The position numbers and the translations under genes are program-made. A stretch of DNA of 4,675 nucleotides from a virus (lineage: Duplodnaviria; Heunggongvirae; Uroviricota; Caudoviricetes): positions 1 through 4,675 of IMG/VR virus record IMGVR_UViG_2663763286_000001. One strand, 5' to 3'. The notes under the pieces were generated by a model, which was not told the origin of the DNA, made no database searches, and saw nothing but the letters and a program-made list of their open reading frames with translations. This document shows, piece by piece, positions 1 through 4,675 of the stretch (positions are counted from its first letter, which is position 1; each line of letters starts with the position of its first letter).

Positions 1-161
1 TAACGTGGGTGGACTGGTATAACAATCGACGATTGCTGGAAAGGCTGGGCCATATTCCTCCGGCAGAAGCAGAAAAAGCTTATTATGCTTCCATCGGAAA
101 TAATGATCTGGCAGCCTGAGTTCACAGATAAAATACTCTCCAGGAAACCCGGGGCGGTTCA
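1..161 (+). mobile_element. IS3-family insertion sequence (IS629/IS1203-like), right end; element continues beyond the window start
   Basis: Transposase reading frame ends at 119, followed by a terminal repeat 122..161 whose reverse complement reads TGAACCGCCCCGGGTTTCCTGGAGAG..., matching from memory the IS629/IS3411-type terminal inverted repeat. The element ends ...GGTTCA (CA-3'), as IS3-family ends do. The left end is outside the window, so the repeat pair cannot be confirmed. Confidence 0.6.
3..119 (+). CDS. Transposase OrfB C-terminal fragment (rve/DDE integrase-core type), 5'-truncated by the window edge
   Basis: Frame 3 translates to TWVDWYNNRRLLERLGHIPPAEAEKAYYASIGNNDLAA*. The YNxRR...LG...PAE pattern is typical of the C-terminus of rve-domain transposases, and a terminal inverted repeat follows directly. 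Confidence 0.55.
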   Translation, partial: TWVDWYNNRRLLERLGHIPPAEAEKAYYASIGNNDLAA

Positions 162-198
162 AATAAATGCCACCGCTATTGCAACTCCTACAGCGGTG
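162..198 (-). terminator. Putative intrinsic terminator downstream of the DUF551 gene
   Basis: Inverted repeat CACCGCT (171..177) / AGCGGTG (192..198) with a 14-nt loop; on the minus-strand RNA it is followed by GCAUUUAUUUG. The loop is long and the U-tract is interrupted, so this is weak. The IS end abuts it at 161. Confidence 0.3.
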
Positions 199-217
199 AA
201 TGCTTCAGGCCAATTCA

Positions 218-721
218 TCACTTCACCTCCTGCGGCGGTTCCGGTAGCGGCATCCAGTGGGTTACCTCTTTGAGATACAGGTCTTCGCCATCACCGTCAT
301 CCCAAGTGGGATTGCCATCATTAAACCAGTCGCCATATACGCCGACCTGAGTGTTGGGGATGTTTGGCGGGTAGTTGTTTTTAAAGTCAGCCGCTAACAC
401 ATAGCATTGTCGCTCTCCCATTTCTGGCATTTGCTCACTACAGCTTATCCAACCATCCGGAGTTACCGGAACTGGCGGCGCGGCATATAGTGGTTTAGGT
501 GATATCTCCGCACGTTTTGCGTATGCTTCAACTGTGTCAGGATTAAACAGGATTATGTTTTCGCCGCATTCCCACGCTATTGGTTTTGCTTCCAGCGATG
601 CCAGAGCAATTCGTGCCAGTTCTTCCGCTTCTTCTGCTGGCAGTACAACGTTGCTACCAGGTCCGTATGTTTCGCGCCACTGCTTGATTGTCAGTAGTCG
701 CTCTTTGGTTATAGTGGTCAT
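218..721 (-). CDS. Phage DUF551-domain protein (167 aa)
   Basis: Intact ORF ending in a double stop (TGATGA). The C-terminal half (PDGWISCSEQMPE...GVYGDWFNDGNPTWDDGDGE...THWMPLPEPP) fits my recollection of DUF551 proteins of lambdoid prophages. Its ATG overlaps the upstream stop as ATGA. Confidence 0.8.
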   Translation of the reverse strand: MTTITKERLLTIKQWRETYGPGSNVVLPAEEAEELARIALASLEAKPIAWECGENIILFNPDTVEAYAKRAEISPKPLYAAPPVPVTPDGWISCSEQMPEMGERQCYVLAADFKNNYPPNIPNTQVGVYGDWFNDGNPTWDDGDGEDLYLKEVTHWMPLPEPPQEVK

Positions 722-927
722 TTGTTAACACTCAAAACTTTATGCCCGGGCGCAAAAGCACGTGTTTTGTCTTTGCTTATTCGCCAGCCATCCTTACGCG
801 CCTCTTTTGCACAACCAGCCCATGACGTACCGATATACTCTCCGAAGTCTGGCACTTGATATACACCTTCCGTACACTGGCGGCAGTCACAATAGAGATG
901 CATGGTGTAACTTGCGGCAATAGCCAT
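718..927 (-). CDS. Small Cys-containing hypothetical protein (69 aa; MAIAASYTMHLYCDCRQCTEG...)
   Basis: ATG at 927 is preceded by AAGGAGAG with a 4-nt spacer. Cys at positions 13, 15, 18 and 39 (CxCxxC...C). Stop overlaps the DUF551 start (ATGA). The 93-aa version in the track is an upstream extension with no ribosome-binding site that would overlap the neighbouring gene. Confidence 0.65.
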   Translation of the reverse strand: MAIAASYTMHLYCDCRQCTEGVYQVPDFGEYIGTSWAGCAKEARKDGWRISKDKTRAFAPGHKVLSVNK

Positions 928-928
928 A

Positions 929-1117
929 TCACTCTCCTTTAGTACGCAAGTGGTTTTTCCAGCGGTTTTGCGCCGCGCTGGGCTTTTTGCAAAAACCACA
1001 ATCCATCATCCCGTAATGTTTCATTAACCCCATCCGTCGGTTGCTGAGTCTCACCCACTGCCAGACGCCAGGAGCGTTTCTACGAACTAACAGAATCTTT
1101 GCTTTACGGTTTTTCAT
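929..1117 (-). CDS. Small basic hypothetical protein with a CxxC motif (62 aa; MKNRKAKILLVRR...)
   Basis: ATG at 1117 is preceded by CAGGAGAG with a 7-nt spacer. Its stop lies 1 nt before the next gene's ATG. The frame stays open upstream to 1276 (115-aa version adding a second CxxC), but that extension has no start codon with usable Shine-Dalgarno spacing. Confidence 0.6.
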   Translation of the reverse strand: MKNRKAKILLVRRNAPGVWQWVRLSNRRMGLMKHYGMMDCGFCKKPSAAQNRWKNHLRTKGE

Positions 1118-1269
1118 CGTTTTGCTCTCCTGCGTCTCTTTGCTGCTCGTCGTGCCGCTGCAATACCGGTATGGCGGCGCTTTGGTGTCGGGATGATGTT
1201 CTTTGCAATTAGCGCAGAAGCCCAAAAACGAGTCGGATACGGTAACAAGCCGAGACATGCCACACGCAT
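1114..1269 (-). CDS. Possible Arg-rich 51-aa ORF (MRVACLGLLPYPTRFW...RRAAKRRRRAKR), alternative frame to the extension of the 929..1117 gene
   Basis: Best ribosome-binding site in the window (AGGAGGTGA, 6-nt spacer, ATG). Start overlaps the upstream stop (TAATG) and stop overlaps the downstream start (ATGA). The low-complexity Arg/Ala-rich C-terminus and rare Arg codons argue against it being a real protein. Confidence 0.3.
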   Translation of the reverse strand: MRVACLGLLPYPTRFWASALIAKNIIPTPKRRHTGIAAARRAAKRRRRAKR

Positions 1270-1718
1270 TACTCACCTCCTTTGATGCGAATGCCAGCGG
1301 CGCGTAATGCGTGTTCTAGGTCAATCAGGTAAAGCCAACTGCCATTTTCTTTAGGTATCATGACTTGTCGCTCATCTGCATTTATCGGGTGTCCATATCG
1401 AAGGTCGTAGAGAGTCGGTAATTGAACTTCCCGCGCTTCCAGTTCAGCAATACGCTTGCACCCATCAGAGATAACTCCCTCGTAATACTCGCGCTGCTCG
1501 TTGAGTTTTGATTTTGTCTCCTCAAGCTCAACGCGCAGCTTCCCTACCGTTAGCGCAATATCCTCGTTCTCCTGGTCGCGGCGGTAGAGGCTACAATAGC
1601 TGCTGAAGCATGCACTTGTTGGATATTCACCAACAATGCCGCGACAAAAATCATCTTCTTCACTTGTCAGCTCCTTTGCGAATCTGTTCCGCCCATTCTT
1701 CAAGGGATTTCTCCGCAT
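1269..1718 (-). CDS. Hypothetical phage protein (about 144-161 aa depending on start; ...WLYLIDLEHALRAAGIRIKGGE)
   Basis: Long minus-strand ORF. The only canonical in-frame start codons with meaningful length lie inside the upstream gene: ATG at 1754, ATG at 1718 (GGTGA only 2 nt upstream), TTG at 1703 (GGAGA with a 6-nt spacer). The reported start is provisional. Possibly Ea22-like by position; no motif recognised. Confidence 0.6.
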   Translation of the reverse strand: MRRNPLKNGRNRFAKELTSEEDDFCRGIVGEYPTSACFSSYCSLYRRDQENEDIALTVGKLRVELEETKSKLNEQREYYEGVISDGCKRIAELEAREVQLPTLYDLRYGHPINADERQVMIPKENGSWLYLIDLEHALRAAGIRIKGGE

Positions 1719-2274
1719 ATTCACCGGACAGGCCATCAATCGGGTACGGTTCATTAGCCAACTCTTCTTTCGCTGACAGAATCATGCGCGTAACGTCGAA
1801 AACTTCACGCAAAGACTTATTGATAAATCCGTGATTGAACGCAGCAGCAAGACGGCTGGCGGTATAGTTAATACCCTCGTTGCGTGCTTCCGCACGAATT
1901 TCAGCCAGAAAAGCATCGGTAGCTGGAGTTTCGCTGTGGTGTAGGGCATCGTTGATAATCATTGCAGCAACTCCGGCCTGCCCTGCATCCGTGACCGACA
2001 CATGATCAAGAGTTACAGCTATTGCGTGTTTCAGCCCGGCGTTCTCCGCCGCCAGCGCTGAAAACTTCTCGTGTGCCAACTTAACAGCCGAATCAGCCTG
2101 CTTAATTGACTCAATCGCTTTCTGCTGGTCTTCGGACAGAGCCGAAATCTTGGCCTCCGCTTCAGCAAATTTACGCACAAGATATTCAGCGTTTGTTTCG
2201 TTAACCTTTAAATCACATGGGATGCATTTACCTTTCAGAAATCCATCCATCTCAATTAGTGTCATTTGTTTCAT
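1660..2274 (-). CDS. Hypothetical mildly acidic, Ala/Glu-rich phage protein (204 aa from [12 protein letters not shown]...)
   Basis: Long ORF whose ATG at 2274 overlaps the upstream stop (ATGA). Composition suggests helical/coiled-coil regions (inference). Alternative starts are GTG at 2292 and ATG at 2265. Confidence 0.7.
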
Positions 2275-2435
2275 TTCTTCCCACTCCGCCACATCGCATT
2301 CAGATATTTGTTATCATTAACAGAGCAGAAACTCTTTCTCTTAAGCAATTCCTCTCTCGATGGCATTGGCTTTACGCGTTGGCGAATAATCATTTCTGCC
2401 GGAAGAATGCCGGGATTGTATGCAAGTCCTCTCAT
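2271..2435 (-). CDS. Small hypothetical protein (54 aa; [34 protein letters not shown]...)
   Basis: ATG at 2435 is preceded by TGAGGAA with a 6-nt spacer, where TGA is the upstream gene's stop. Its own stop overlaps the next ATG (ATGA). The track's 65-aa version from 2468 has no Shine-Dalgarno sequence and overlaps the upstream gene. Confidence 0.5.
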
Positions 2436-2445
2436 GGTAAATTCC

Positions 2446-2742
2446 TCAGTTATTACTGATAGCGCCATAGCGTGAGCGGTAATTACGCAGGCGCGGGTCG
2501 ATATATTCAGGGAATTTGTCTATTGTCGCTTTTCGCAACGGTCTCATTGCTGTTTCGTTTGTTCGGTCCTTCTCCTGTTTTAGCGCGAGTTGTATATCGC
2601 GTCGGTACATCCGTTCTGCTTTTGTTTCTGGTGTCAGAGCAAGAAACGCGTCGAAATTGTTTTTGATATTTCCCAGCACCTCCGCCTTGGAGCTACCGGA
2701 GCAGTTGCGCGGGTCATCCGCACCATACAGAGGCGCTGGCAT
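2446..2742 (-). CDS. Hypothetical phage protein (98 aa; [51 protein letters not shown]...)
   Basis: ORF beginning 23 nt downstream of the DUF669 stop, with a weak AAGG about 9-10 nt upstream. Same strand and tight spacing as its neighbours. No recognisable motif. Confidence 0.65.
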
Positions 2743-2765
2743 AATGGGAGCCTTATTTTCAGTAA

Positions 2766-3353
2766 TCAGAAAGGAGGGTAATCGTTCTGGCTGTAACCAT
2801 AATCATCTGCATGATTATGGCTTACGTTTTTAGAGCGATTGTCTTTATCTTTGAGGCTGGCAACCATGTTGGCGATAGTTTCTGGTTGCTTGCCTTCTGC
2901 CTTTTCTTTAAGGGTTTGACCTGTTTGTGCAATAAACGGGATGCGTATTTCCATCTGGTAGCTGTCTGCGCCAGTCTTTTTGTTTGTGGTTAATACTTTC
3001 TGGAGCACTAACCCGATTTTCTTTCCATGAAATTCAGGTGCAACAAATTTACTGGCGGAAACCATATGTTGCGTTAATTGTCCAATCCCGGCACACCCCA
3101 TCATGGCGTGAACGACATTTGCGCCAAATTTGTTTTCCGTGCCGTCATTTTTCTGAACACAGACGCTAAGATACTGGATTTTACGTCCGTCGTCGGATTC
3201 TCCAGAAAACTCAATAAATTTGGCTCCTTTTTCTGATTGCTTGAGTTCTGCTTCAGTAATGGTAATTATGTAAGCGCCAGTTTCGTTAATAAAACCACCT
3301 TGCCCTGCGGTCAGTGCTGCTTCTTCGTTATAAGTAAAAATTACGTTGCTCAT
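2766..3353 (-). CDS. DUF669-like phage protein (195 aa), the usual partner of Sak4-type recombinases; possible ssDNA-binding role
   Basis: Start overlaps the Sak4 stop (ATGA), with AAGGA upstream. Size, position directly after a Sak4-like ATPase, and N-terminal sequence (MSNVIFTYNEEAALTAGQGGFINETGAYIITITEAEL...) fit my recollection of DUF669. The domain assignment is not verified. Confidence 0.7.
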   Translation of the reverse strand: MSNVIFTYNEEAALTAGQGGFINETGAYIITITEAELKQSEKGAKFIEFSGESDDGRKIQYLSVCVQKNDGTENKFGANVVHAMMGCAGIGQLTQHMVSASKFVAPEFHGKKIGLVLQKVLTTNKKTGADSYQMEIRIPFIAQTGQTLKEKAEGKQPETIANMVASLKDKDNRSKNVSHNHADDYGYSQNDYPPF

Positions 3354-4030
3354 GCGGCGTTTTCCTTAATTTGATGAACATTATTGATGCCGTAGTAATC
3401 ACAAACAGTGGCATCGACGAAAGAGAGATCGTTATCAATCTCATTGGAATCAAACATTCCCATTGGGGATTTAACAGTGTCTGCACCGTTGTTTTTCGTG
3501 GTGAAAAAGAACTGGTCATCGCGGGTAAGAGTGCGAAGAACTATAGTAAACATGCCTTCGACAGTGATTTTCTCGTCCAGCATTTTGCCGATAGTCTTCA
3601 TTTTCACGCGCCCCATAGGGGTTTCTTCGGTGTGCGCAAGAAAATAGACTCTCAGGTCATCAGGCGCATCCTGTGCAGCCTTAATGACCTCCCATGCGTG
3701 GCGGCCTATCTCAGTAAATTTATCAAACGATTTTTCTTCTGAGCGGCGCATAAACTCATTGCTCATCACATACTGGAAGTCATCAACAATAACGATTCTT
3801 TTCCCGTATTCGTGAGCACGCTTAATTACGGCAACTATTACGCCCCATTTGTCAGTGGTAACTACGGTTCCTTTTTTTGCTCTGGCATCCCATGCAAGCC
3901 AGTCTTTTGATTTAAATGGTAGCGGCTTGCCTATTGGTTTTATAAGTATTGCTTCCTCTGGATTGATATTTCTCATGCTGGTTGATTTTCCGGTGCCAGA
4001 CTCACCGAGTATTAATATCGCAGTTCCCAT
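3350..4030 (-). CDS. Sak4-like core-only RecA-family ATPase (AAA_24-type), 226 aa; phage recombination/ssDNA-annealing module
   Basis: Walker A motif GESGTGKST at residues 9-17 and Walker B-like RIVIVDD. The roughly 220-aa size is typical of phage Sak4. GGTGA lies 3 nt upstream of the ATG. It sits where lambda carries bet/exo. Confidence 0.85.
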   Translation of the reverse strand: MGTAILILGESGTGKSTSMRNINPEEAILIKPIGKPLPFKSKDWLAWDARAKKGTVVTTDKWGVIVAVIKRAHEYGKRIVIVDDFQYVMSNEFMRRSEEKSFDKFTEIGRHAWEVIKAAQDAPDDLRVYFLAHTEETPMGRVKMKTIGKMLDEKITVEGMFTIVLRTLTRDDQFFFTTKNNGADTVKSPMGMFDSNEIDNDLSFVDATVCDYYGINNVHQIKENAA

Positions 4031-4038
4031 AATTCACC

Positions 4039-4227
4039 TCAGAATGGTAATTCGGATGGGGAGGAAAGAAATTCGCGCTCATTCATGCGCTCTCTTTGTG
4101 CCAGCCATAAGCAAAGTTGTTTCTTTGATTTATCTCCCGCTTTACGCCAGTAACGAGCCTCAGCAATGTGATACTCTCTTTTTAATCGACTTAACTCTGG
4201 AGTTTTCGCCAGTTCTACCGGGATCAT
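4039..4227 (-). CDS. Hypothetical small protein in the gam position (62 aa from MIPVELAKTPELSRLKREYHIAEARYWRK...; 66 aa if started at 4239)
   Basis: ATG at 4227 overlaps the kil stop (ATGA) and is preceded by GGAGG with a 5-nt spacer. The alternative ATG at 4239 lies inside kil and has no Shine-Dalgarno sequence. The protein is unlike lambda Gam as I recall it. Confidence 0.6.
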   Translation of the reverse strand: MIPVELAKTPELSRLKREYHIAEARYWRKAGDKSKKQLCLWLAQRERMNEREFLSSPSELPF

Positions 4228-4337
4228 TTTGACCTCCATTTTCTGTAGGCTTCGACGGCCTCACGAAACATCTTTTCATCGCCAATAAAAGTGGCGATAG
4301 TGAATTTAGTCTGGATAGCCATAAGTGTTTTATCCAT
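4224..4337 (-). CDS. kil: Kil, host cell-division (FtsZ) inhibitor homolog, 37 aa
   Basis: Translation MDKTLMAIQTKFTIATFIGDEKMFREAVEAYRKWRSK is near-identical over about 33 residues to lambda Kil as I recall it (MDQTLMAIQTKFTIATFIGDEKMFREAVDAYKKW...). AGGAG lies 9 nt upstream. The start overlaps the cIII stop by 8 nt, as in lambda. Confidence 0.85.
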   Translation of the reverse strand: MDKTLMAIQTKFTIATFIGDEKMFREAVEAYRKWRSK

Positions 4338-4470
4338 TTTTGGGAACTCCTGGCTGATTAAGTACGTCGATGAGTCGCTTCCATCCGTCACGTAATTTAC
4401 GGGTGATTCGTTCAAGTAAAGATTCGGAAGGGCAGCCAGCAACAGGCCACCCTGCAATGGCATATTGCAT
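4330..4470 (-). CDS. cIII: CIII, FtsH (HflB) protease inhibitor that stabilises CII, 46 aa
   Basis: Translation MQYAIAGWPVAGCPSESLLERITRKLRDGWKRLIDVLNQPGVPKNG matches lambda CIII residues 1-46 with one substitution (I35V), from memory. The ribosome-binding region TAAATAAGGAGCACACCATG matches the lambda cIII leader. The track's longer ORF is an upstream extension that runs through the terminator hairpins. Confidence 0.9.
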   Translation of the reverse strand: MQYAIAGWPVAGCPSESLLERITRKLRDGWKRLIDVLNQPGVPKNG

Positions 4471-4495
4471 GGTGTGCTCCTTATTTATACATAAC
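4471..4495 (-). promoter_or_regulatory. cIII translation-initiation leader (Shine-Dalgarno AGGAG plus upstream AU-rich tract)
   Basis: Minus-strand sequence UUCGUUAUGUAUAAAUAAGGAGCACACC-AUG is essentially the lambda cIII leader. In lambda this region is known to be subject to RNase III and alternative-structure control; applying that here is by homology. Confidence 0.5.
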
Positions 4496-4517
4496 GAAAA
4501 ACGCCTCGAGTGAAGCG
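4496..4517 (-). terminator. Intrinsic terminator-like hairpin plus U5 just upstream of cIII (tL1-like position)
   Basis: Minus-strand RNA CGCUUC-ACUC-GAGGCG (6-bp stem including one G-U pair, 4-nt loop) followed by UUUUUCG. Confidence 0.5.
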
Positions 4518-4530
4518 TTATTGGTATGCA

Positions 4531-4559
4531 TATAAAAAGGCCCTCACGCACTGGAGGGC
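4531..4559 (-). terminator. Second intrinsic terminator-like hairpin plus U-tract, in tandem with the first
   Basis: Minus-strand RNA GCCCUC-CAGUGCGU-GAGGGC (6-bp GC-rich stem, 8-nt loop) followed by CUUUUUAUAU. Confidence 0.5.
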
Positions 4560-4621
4560 AAAGAAGATTTCCAATAATCAGAACAAGTCGGCTCCTGTTT
4601 AGTTACGAGCGACATTGCTCC

Positions 4622-4649
4622 GTGTATTCACTCGTTGGAATGAATACAC
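4622..4649. repeat. Perfect 9-bp inverted repeat GTGTATTCA-(10 nt)-TGAATACAC
   Basis: Seen directly in the sequence. There is no adjacent T-tract on either strand, so it is not a canonical terminator. It may lie within the 3' end of an upstream minus-strand gene that is cut off by the window edge. Confidence 0.4.
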
Positions 4650-4675
4650 AGTGCTTATTCGTACTAATAAAATAC

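Follow-up and report, generated by a model that had tools for sequence, protein, structure and literature searches.

The DNA analyzed here, hereafter the window, is a stretch of 4,675 nucleotides (nt) that represents positions 1 to 4,675 of the IMG/VR virus record IMGVR_UViG_2663763286_000001 (Caudoviricetes), and the subject of this analysis is a block of small minus-strand open reading frames (ORFs) at positions 718-2742. We assigned this block to the early-left (PL) operon of a lambdoid Escherichia coli prophage, as its promoter-distal accessory part, of the type found in phage P22 and not the exo-xis type of lambda, and place the probability of this assignment at roughly 0.8. We hold with similar confidence that its content is P22-type (abc2, orf56, eaE, ead/ea22 ... 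eaA). The original prediction, which was made from the sequence of the window, had listed ORFs of 98, 54, 204, ~149, 51, 62 and 69 amino acids (aa) on the minus strand, and all of these were confirmed, with their coordinates, by the ORF list. The accompanying statement that no ORF could be assigned to a characterized family did not hold, since named families account for four of the seven: Abc2 (PF11043, PDB 8b1t), DUF2737/Orf56, EaE and Ea22.

The placement of the block in the distal part of the PL operon is based on its layout, on the lack of internal promoter-like or terminator-like sites and on a cIII element on the same strand. The ORFs (98, 54, 204, 149/161, 51, 62 and 69 aa in the ORF list) run in a continuous series on the minus strand and are tightly packed, with neighbors that overlap as ATGA or sit 1-10 nt apart. 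No promoter-like or terminator-like sites were found on that strand inside 718-2742. Rfam identified the lambda cIII thermoregulator (RF01804) at positions 4425-4483 of the minus strand (88.5 bits, expectation value E = 2e-21), and its location on the same strand fixes the identity and the orientation of the PL operon. The block would accordingly be expected to be transcribed from PL under N antitermination, jointly with cIII, kil and the recombination genes for a Sak4-like ATPase and a single-stranded DNA-binding protein (SSB), and its genes would be translated by coupling. For several upstream genes, the ending of the gene (K-G-(G)-E-stop; AAAGGAG... codons) contains the ribosome-binding site of the gene that follows. 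This ending was observed in Ea22-type genes and in the 62-aa gene (window 1269-1275 and 929-935, with equivalent ends in related loci). The joint is conserved, and it may be that unrelated downstream genes are swapped in more easily through it.

The 98-aa protein was identified, by sequence comparison, as the orthologue of the structurally solved Abc2 (anti-RecBCD protein 2) of P22. Supporting this identification were matches to Pfam PF11043 (122 bits versus a cut-off of 25, E = 1.2e-35, with residues 1-98 on profile positions 1-97), to phrog_656 "abc2 anti-RecBCD" (E = 2e-44) and to P22 Abc2 in the PDB (8b1t/8b1u, E = 2.7e-32 across residues 1-98), to which it is 62% identical (BLASTP). As a coding test, variable sites were counted at codon positions 1/2/3 in the homologous DNA of fetched loci (labelled with L numbers), and the counts for Abc2 were 37/38/65. 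Pro68, which in P22 Abc2 occupies the active site of PpiB, the host isomerase that is recruited (PMC9836394), is present in both proteins. Phages that encode Abc2 have no exonuclease of their own (PMC9836394), and the window matches this context rule in that abc2 adjoins a Sak4-like and SSB module without its own exonuclease. No exonuclease gene was identified anywhere in the window, and the recombination module (2766-4030) also has no Gam. On the assumption that the mechanism is as in P22 (PMC9836394), Abc2 would bind RecC and recruit host PpiB through Pro68, and the bound RecBCD would turn Chi-blind and be kept as a 5' resection engine, an action that would protect phage DNA ends and supply the exonuclease which the Sak4/SSB module lacks. 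Abc2 is paired with Sak4 in the window; the published work concerns Erf. The abc2 gene is functionally part of the recombination module and should be counted with the Sak4/SSB genes. As such, the position given to the block in the original prediction, between the recombination genes and the DUF551 gene, stands, with xis/int beyond (as seen in a related prophage, L211, described below), except that its first gene belongs with the former.

Ten nt past the abc2 stop is the start of a 54-aa ORF, preceded by a GAGGA ribosome-binding site, whose product belongs to the DUF2737 family (PF10930; 100.7 bits versus a cut-off of 25, E = 4e-29) and shares 72% of its residues with P22 Orf56. Its variable sites by codon position were 21/16/36. 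The DUF2737 family is small, with 50 representatives among 1.84 billion proteins, and one incidental mention of it was found in the literature.

The homology that can be demonstrated for the 204-aa protein is to P22 EaE (37% identity over 135 aa, E = 9e-22, BLASTP; phrog_614, E = 2e-91), although RefSeq names some relatives of the protein "ead/Ea22-like". There was no Pfam match for it at E <= 0.1, and the Ead/Ea22-like model PF13935 was not reached. The start of the gene overlaps the DUF2737 stop as ATGA, and a DUF2737 gene leads into an EaE-like gene with this overlap in 48 loci. At least 8000 database clusters match the protein. In an alignment of 24 members the N-terminal region and the coiled coil are conserved and the C-terminal domain (residues 115-204) is near-invariant, while a central cassette (approximately residues 81-114 in the window protein) is exchanged for unrelated sequence between members. 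The 42 fetched loci (from L002 to L161) contained a dozen or more unrelated cassettes, 28-94 residues in length. This variability may reflect diversifying selection or simple module shuffling between conserved flanks. An AlphaFold model of the protein, built with 24 homologues, was all-helical and unusable (predicted local distance difference test, pLDDT, 45), and a search of PDB sequences returned chance matches only. The EaE-like and Ea22-like proteins would be oligomers, built on their coiled coils and equipped with exchangeable modules, and the conserved coiled-coil DNA of their genes would serve as the crossover point for module swapping.

An ORF is indeed present where the original prediction had placed one of ~149 aa, and what it encodes is a chimeric remnant derived from Ea22 (161 aa, or 149 aa from its third ATG). 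Residues 56-110 align with residues 51-105 of lambda Ea22, that is, the coiled coil, at 85% identity (BLASTP), and the match ends within the coiled coil; residues 111-161 represent a variant C-terminal domain, and PF13935 (Ead_Ea22) matches in the last third over profile positions 86-139 only. Residues 1-58, conversely, are an out-of-frame reading of the EaE-like gene's 3' end and of the opening 30 codons of a 136-aa gene, which is intact in NZ_CP024056 and encodes a hydrophobic N-terminus. That gene has been deleted from the window except for a 37-aa ORF comprising those 30 codons, then seven out-of-frame codons and a stop. A strong AAGGAG ribosome-binding site precedes the GTG of the 37-aa ORF by 7 nt, this GTG overlaps the stop codon of the EaE-like gene, and a short hydrophobic peptide is probably still made from the ORF; the N-terminus of that peptide appeared signal-peptide-like when judged by eye. 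The junction, also read by eye, is at approximately 1575-1583, within a short stretch common to both parental sequences. The identical junction is joined to a different Ea22 C-half in three other loci (L083, L212 and L213), which indicates that the deletion predates this prophage, and the conserved RRDQENEDIALTVGKLRVELE segment has since been used as a crossover point. One crossover at the coiled-coil DNA would have destroyed both ea22 and the neighboring 136-aa gene.

The long ORF has three candidate ATGs, each without a good ribosome-binding site; gene callers skip the ORF or start it at differing, non-ATG codons, and an exact-sequence look-up of its 161-aa and 149-aa products found no record of either in the collection. 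Only chance matches were obtained for the 161-aa protein in a PDB sequence search, with no solved structure matching its C-terminal domain. The 149/161-aa ORF is a recombination scar and not an intact gene, and we regard it as a pseudogene. Ea22 of lambda and Shiga toxin (Stx) phages is a tetrameric coiled coil with variable C-terminal domains and a three-part, mosaic architecture, and it favors lysogeny (PMC7093339, PMC10834534). Since the copy in the window is truncated, its pro-lysogenic activity is probably lost.

The three remaining ORFs, of 51, 62 and 69 aa, match only PHROG families of unknown function and all have ribosome-binding sites. Codon positions speak clearly for coding in the case of the 69-aa gene and less strongly in the case of the 62- and 51-aa ORFs. 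The 69-aa ORF is clearly a gene, with 11/7/36 variable sites and a strong ribosome-binding site. Its family comprises 47 clusters, for which the listed source names are Escherichia, Salmonella, Shigella, Kosakonia and Pantoea, and has an invariant Y-C-D-C-x-x-C motif and a conserved tail (GWRISxDxxRxFAPGHK), which suggests a predicted Cys3-His metal (zinc) site; no fold match was identified. When 80 loci were anchored on the 69-aa gene, 46 also had the 62-aa gene, which RefSeq annotates as a hypothetical protein. Its family has 60 clusters, and all listed source names are Escherichia or Salmonella. The first 10 and last 18 residues are almost invariant (MKNRKAK..., ...QNRWKNH) and the middle is unalignable; in two variants (P0100 and P0105) the middle is read in an alternative frame, after which the frame is restored. 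The pattern suggests that what counts in this family is just the two ends, or else the passage of ribosomes through the ORF. The 51-aa ORF has the best ribosome-binding site in the block (AAGGAGG), which is inside the "KGGE" end of the Ea22-derived ORF, and a relative of 58 aa is annotated in L004 (WP_001261534.1). We judge it probably translated, on evidence that is thin. A structured RNA in 1118-1268 was also considered as a candidate and was rejected, as Rfam was empty there and the ribosome-binding site, in-frame indel and codon pattern favor a small ORF. Together with DUF2737, the 51-, 62- and 69-aa proteins would be small, mostly basic, non-essential early proteins without assignable activity.

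Two of these assignments have to be weighed against alternatives that concern single genes. DUF2737 could be a dedicated cofactor of Abc2, the two genes forming an anti-RecBCD unit, given that DUF2737 was present in 78 of 80 Abc2-anchored viral contigs, that the ~10-nt spacing was kept in 81 of the 98 loci having both genes, and that the pair holds alike with an Erf, Rad52-like or Sak4 recombinase. We consider such a unit unlikely, however, because the distant homologues of DUF2737 have a recognizable Abc2 upstream in only 5 of 34 loci (a profile search of genome contigs with a smaller DUF2737 alignment returned six loci), and because a 93-aa gene (MKLNI.LGKYVITGTKHDL...GYYSKFEHLVKELC...) separates abc2 from DUF2737 in 14 loci with closer homologues, including L016, L023, L038, L046, L057-L059, L088, L136, L157, L160 and L165. 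Moreover, the RecBCD-Abc2 complex has been purified and studied with no other phage protein mentioned (PMC9836394). The 93-aa family is also directly upstream of distant DUF2737 genes without Abc2 (L193, L196, L198, L199, L201, L204 and L206), and may be the more constant partner of DUF2737. An obligate Abc2-DUF2737 pairing was thus downgraded, as most distant DUF2737 homologues are without Abc2. The few distant members with Abc2, together with the 93-aa insert, make the pairing look like linkage in a mosaic segment, perhaps just its co-inheritance, and not proof of shared function. In the case of the small ORFs, the 51-aa ORF and possibly the 62-aa ORF might not be genes at all but open frames in a conserved linker between mosaic modules. 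Consistent with this, there is no gene call at the position of the 51-aa ORF in the RefSeq-annotated L001 or in L211, and the region is open in a second frame too; the middle of the 62-aa protein tolerates full replacement and apparently compensated frameshifts; and the excess of third-position changes is modest for both (5/6/12 for 51 aa and 21/18/33 for 62 aa). Yet each of the two ORFs is preceded by a good ribosome-binding site and is coupled by start/stop overlaps (the stop of the 51-aa ORF overlaps the ATG of the 62-aa gene), the common indel of the 51-aa ORF, a 21-nt insertion in 17 of 18 distinct relatives, is in frame, and both match PHROG families at E < 1e-27. These features make an origin as linker sequence doubtful, and we retain both ORFs as probable small genes of the accessory block.

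A broader alternative, which was the view of the original prediction, is that one or more of the unassigned small genes (51, 62 or 69 aa, or DUF2737) or the EaE cassette has a role in anti-defence, defence triggering or host takeover that is so far undescribed. The suggestion that such accessory slots carry anti-defence cargo was borne out to the extent that abc2, a counter-defence gene, is present and adjoins unassigned genes. In a screen of phage accessory genes, in which the abc2 neighborhood was treated as an accessory region and Abc2 was used as a control, abc2-adjacent genes such as P22 abc1 triggered abortive-infection loci (bioRxiv 10.1101/2023.04.06.535777). Patterns compatible with diversifying selection are also apparent in the EaE family, where so many unrelated cassettes between near-invariant flanks were found in 42 loci only, and in the 62-aa family with its invariant ends and unalignable middle, and the 69-aa protein combines an invariant Cys cluster with the lack of a fold match. 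Against this, there were no PADLOC, Pfam or NCBIfam hits and no structural match (no PADLOC-DB family was found for any of the eight proteins at E <= 0.01, and NCBIfam gave no meaningful match for the block ORFs), the families are narrow and are abundant in ordinary prophages, and mosaic recombination, well known in lambdoid phages, accounts equally well for the variability of the cassettes. Nothing found points to a new domain or system, and we regard a hidden function of this kind as improbable. A more specific version, in which the 69-aa YCDCxxC protein or the hypervariable EaE and 62-aa cassettes are arms-race specificity modules against host or prophage immunity (as inhibitors, decoys or triggers), appears more improbable still; if it were true, this widespread prophage slot would harbor a counter-defence family not yet described.

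For the assignment that we favor, a P22-type accessory segment of the PL operon, four points should be set on the other side of the balance. Transcription from PL and translational coupling are deduced solely from the layout. The window Abc2 is 62% identical to P22 Abc2, and its binding to RecC and its cooperation with Sak4 instead of Erf are predictions. In several assemblies the frame of the chimera stays open, and it could still be expressed from a weak or non-canonical start. Lastly, five of the seven ORFs remain without a function, and the explanation covers the organization of the block more than its activity.

The source of the window was traced through related loci. An exact-sequence look-up of the 204-aa protein led to E. 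coli draft assemblies, and positions 162-4675 of the window are 100% identical to a prophage beside mlrA (L211, GCA_026423355.1). The gene order there is cIII, kil, a 62-aa gene, Sak4, SSB, abc2, DUF2737, the 204-aa gene, an uncalled gap, the block's own 62-aa gene and then its 69-aa gene, DUF551, DUF4222, a 44-aa gene, a DUF1233-family gene, the integrase and then host mlrA. The DUF1233-family (PF06806) gene occupies the position at which related prophages have an annotated excisionase. In the window, the end of an IS3-family insertion sequence (IS) is found where L211 has DUF4222, DUF1233 and the integrase, which indicates that the IS splits the early-left operon from xis/int in this strain. 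No complete E. coli genome or phage record in the searched collections covered >=80% of the window, because the region is strongly mosaic. Co-occurrence across prophage loci, proposed originally as a check on whether the ORFs form a unit, showed that the seven ORFs do not travel as one. Two other loci with an identical 204-aa gene (L212 and L213) have a Rad52-like recombinase and a classical SSB. At the downstream border of the block, the DUF551 protein gave BLASTP matches to the N- and C-terminal parts of P22 EaA. The coordinates of the main features are collected in the table.

Table. Features of the 4,675-nt window, in order of position, with the evidence for each
Feature	Positions	Strand	Evidence or remark
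IS3-family element end	1-161; transposase C-terminus 9-119	+ (transposase C-terminus)	~57 nt past DUF551 gene stop; absent from L211
DUF551 protein, 167 aa, P22 EaA-like	218-721	-	PF04448, E = 3e-20; downstream border of block
69-aa protein (93 aa from GTG)	718-927	-	Invariant YCDCxxC, conserved tail
62-aa basic protein, isoelectric point 11.6	929-1117	-	phrog_1380, E = 5e-40
51-aa very basic ORF, isoelectric point 12	1114-1269	-	phrog_13831, E = 1e-27
Chimeric Ea22-derived ORF, 161 aa (149 aa from third ATG)	1269-1754 (149 aa: 1269-1718)	-	BLASTP, PF13935
37-aa ORF, remnant of deleted 136-aa gene	1550-1663	-	Translation, comparison with L002 4718-5128
EaE-like protein, 204 aa (210 aa from GTG)	1660-2274	-	BLASTP to P22 EaE; phrog_614
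DUF2737 gene, 54 aa (65 aa from upstream ATG)	2271-2435	-	PF10930; equivalent to P22 orf56, HK97 gp38
abc2, anti-RecBCD protein 2, 98 aa	2446-2742	-	PF11043, phrog_656, PDB 8b1t/8b1u
DUF669-type single-stranded DNA-binding protein	2766-3353	-	phrog_743 single-strand DNA-binding protein, E = 9e-67
Sak4-like ATPase	3350-4030	-	phrog_2872, E = 6e-108

The block is a non-essential-type accessory region whose content is already catalogued. Each of its ORFs belongs to an existing Pfam or PHROG family and its DNA is identical to a public sequence, and as such the finding is already known. Its families are the usual P22-type "ea" cargo of very many E. coli and Salmonella prophages and of many Stx-converting phage records. 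The value of the present analysis is for annotation, in that abc2 moves to the Sak4/SSB module and the "149-aa gene" becomes a recombination scar, and what is left as genuinely uncharacterized is DUF2737 and the ORFs of 51, 62 and 69 aa. In the prophages of pathogenic E. coli these four are extremely common, and any phenotype for them would be useful, although none is predicted here. Points of interest in the region are the orphan CxCxxC 69-aa protein, the hypervariable EaE and 62-aa cassettes, and the close but not universal linkage of abc2 and DUF2737.

In comparison with known systems, the exo-xis region of lambda (orf60a, orf63, orf61, ea22, ea8.5) likewise lies between recombination genes and xis/int, but is otherwise not equivalent to the block. 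The proposed equivalence therefore stands for position and not for content, which is of the P22 abc/ea type. In BLASTP searches of all block ORFs against lambda Ea8.5, Orf60a, Orf61, Orf63 and Ea22, the sole match was to Ea22, through the one window ORF that shares its coiled coil (85% identity); for the others nothing fell below E = 0.005, a value that came from a short, chance-level match between the 51-aa ORF and Ea8.5. The ORFs of the block are thus not all characterized exo-xis proteins, and those of 51, 62 and 69 aa remain without a named family. The window also differs from lambda in its use of Abc2, not Gam, for RecBCD, and in having no Exo. Relative to the Ead/Ea22-like family (PF13935) and the Ea22 variants V1-V3 of Stx phages (PMC10834534), the window copy is without the Ea22 N-terminal region and start codon, but it shares the mosaic three-part design, the coiled coil and an exchangeable C-terminal domain. 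The window Abc2 differs from that in the P22 Abc2-RecBCD complex (PDB 8b1t, 8b1u; eLife 2022, PMC9836394) at 38% of its residues, mainly in 13-66, the part modelled with RecC in the P22 complex; the two proteins align over their full length, and N-terminal and C-terminal stretches of 12 and 10 residues, respectively, are kept, as is Pro68.

The closest known arrangement is the abc-ea region of P22 (erf, abc1, abc2, orf56, eaE, eaF, eaD, eaI, eaA ...). In the window, a Sak4 recombinase and a DUF669-type SSB are present instead of Erf, abc1 and arf are missing, as are eaF, eaI, eaG and eaC, the ea22-type gene is truncated, and there are genes for 51-, 62- and 69-aa proteins that are absent from P22. 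The likenesses are in the backbone of the region: both have the order abc2-orf56-eaE (with identities of 62%, 72% and 37%, respectively), both have a gap of 10 nt between abc2 and orf56, and in both a coiled-coil gene of the Ea22/EaD type and an EaA/DUF551 gene follow further downstream.

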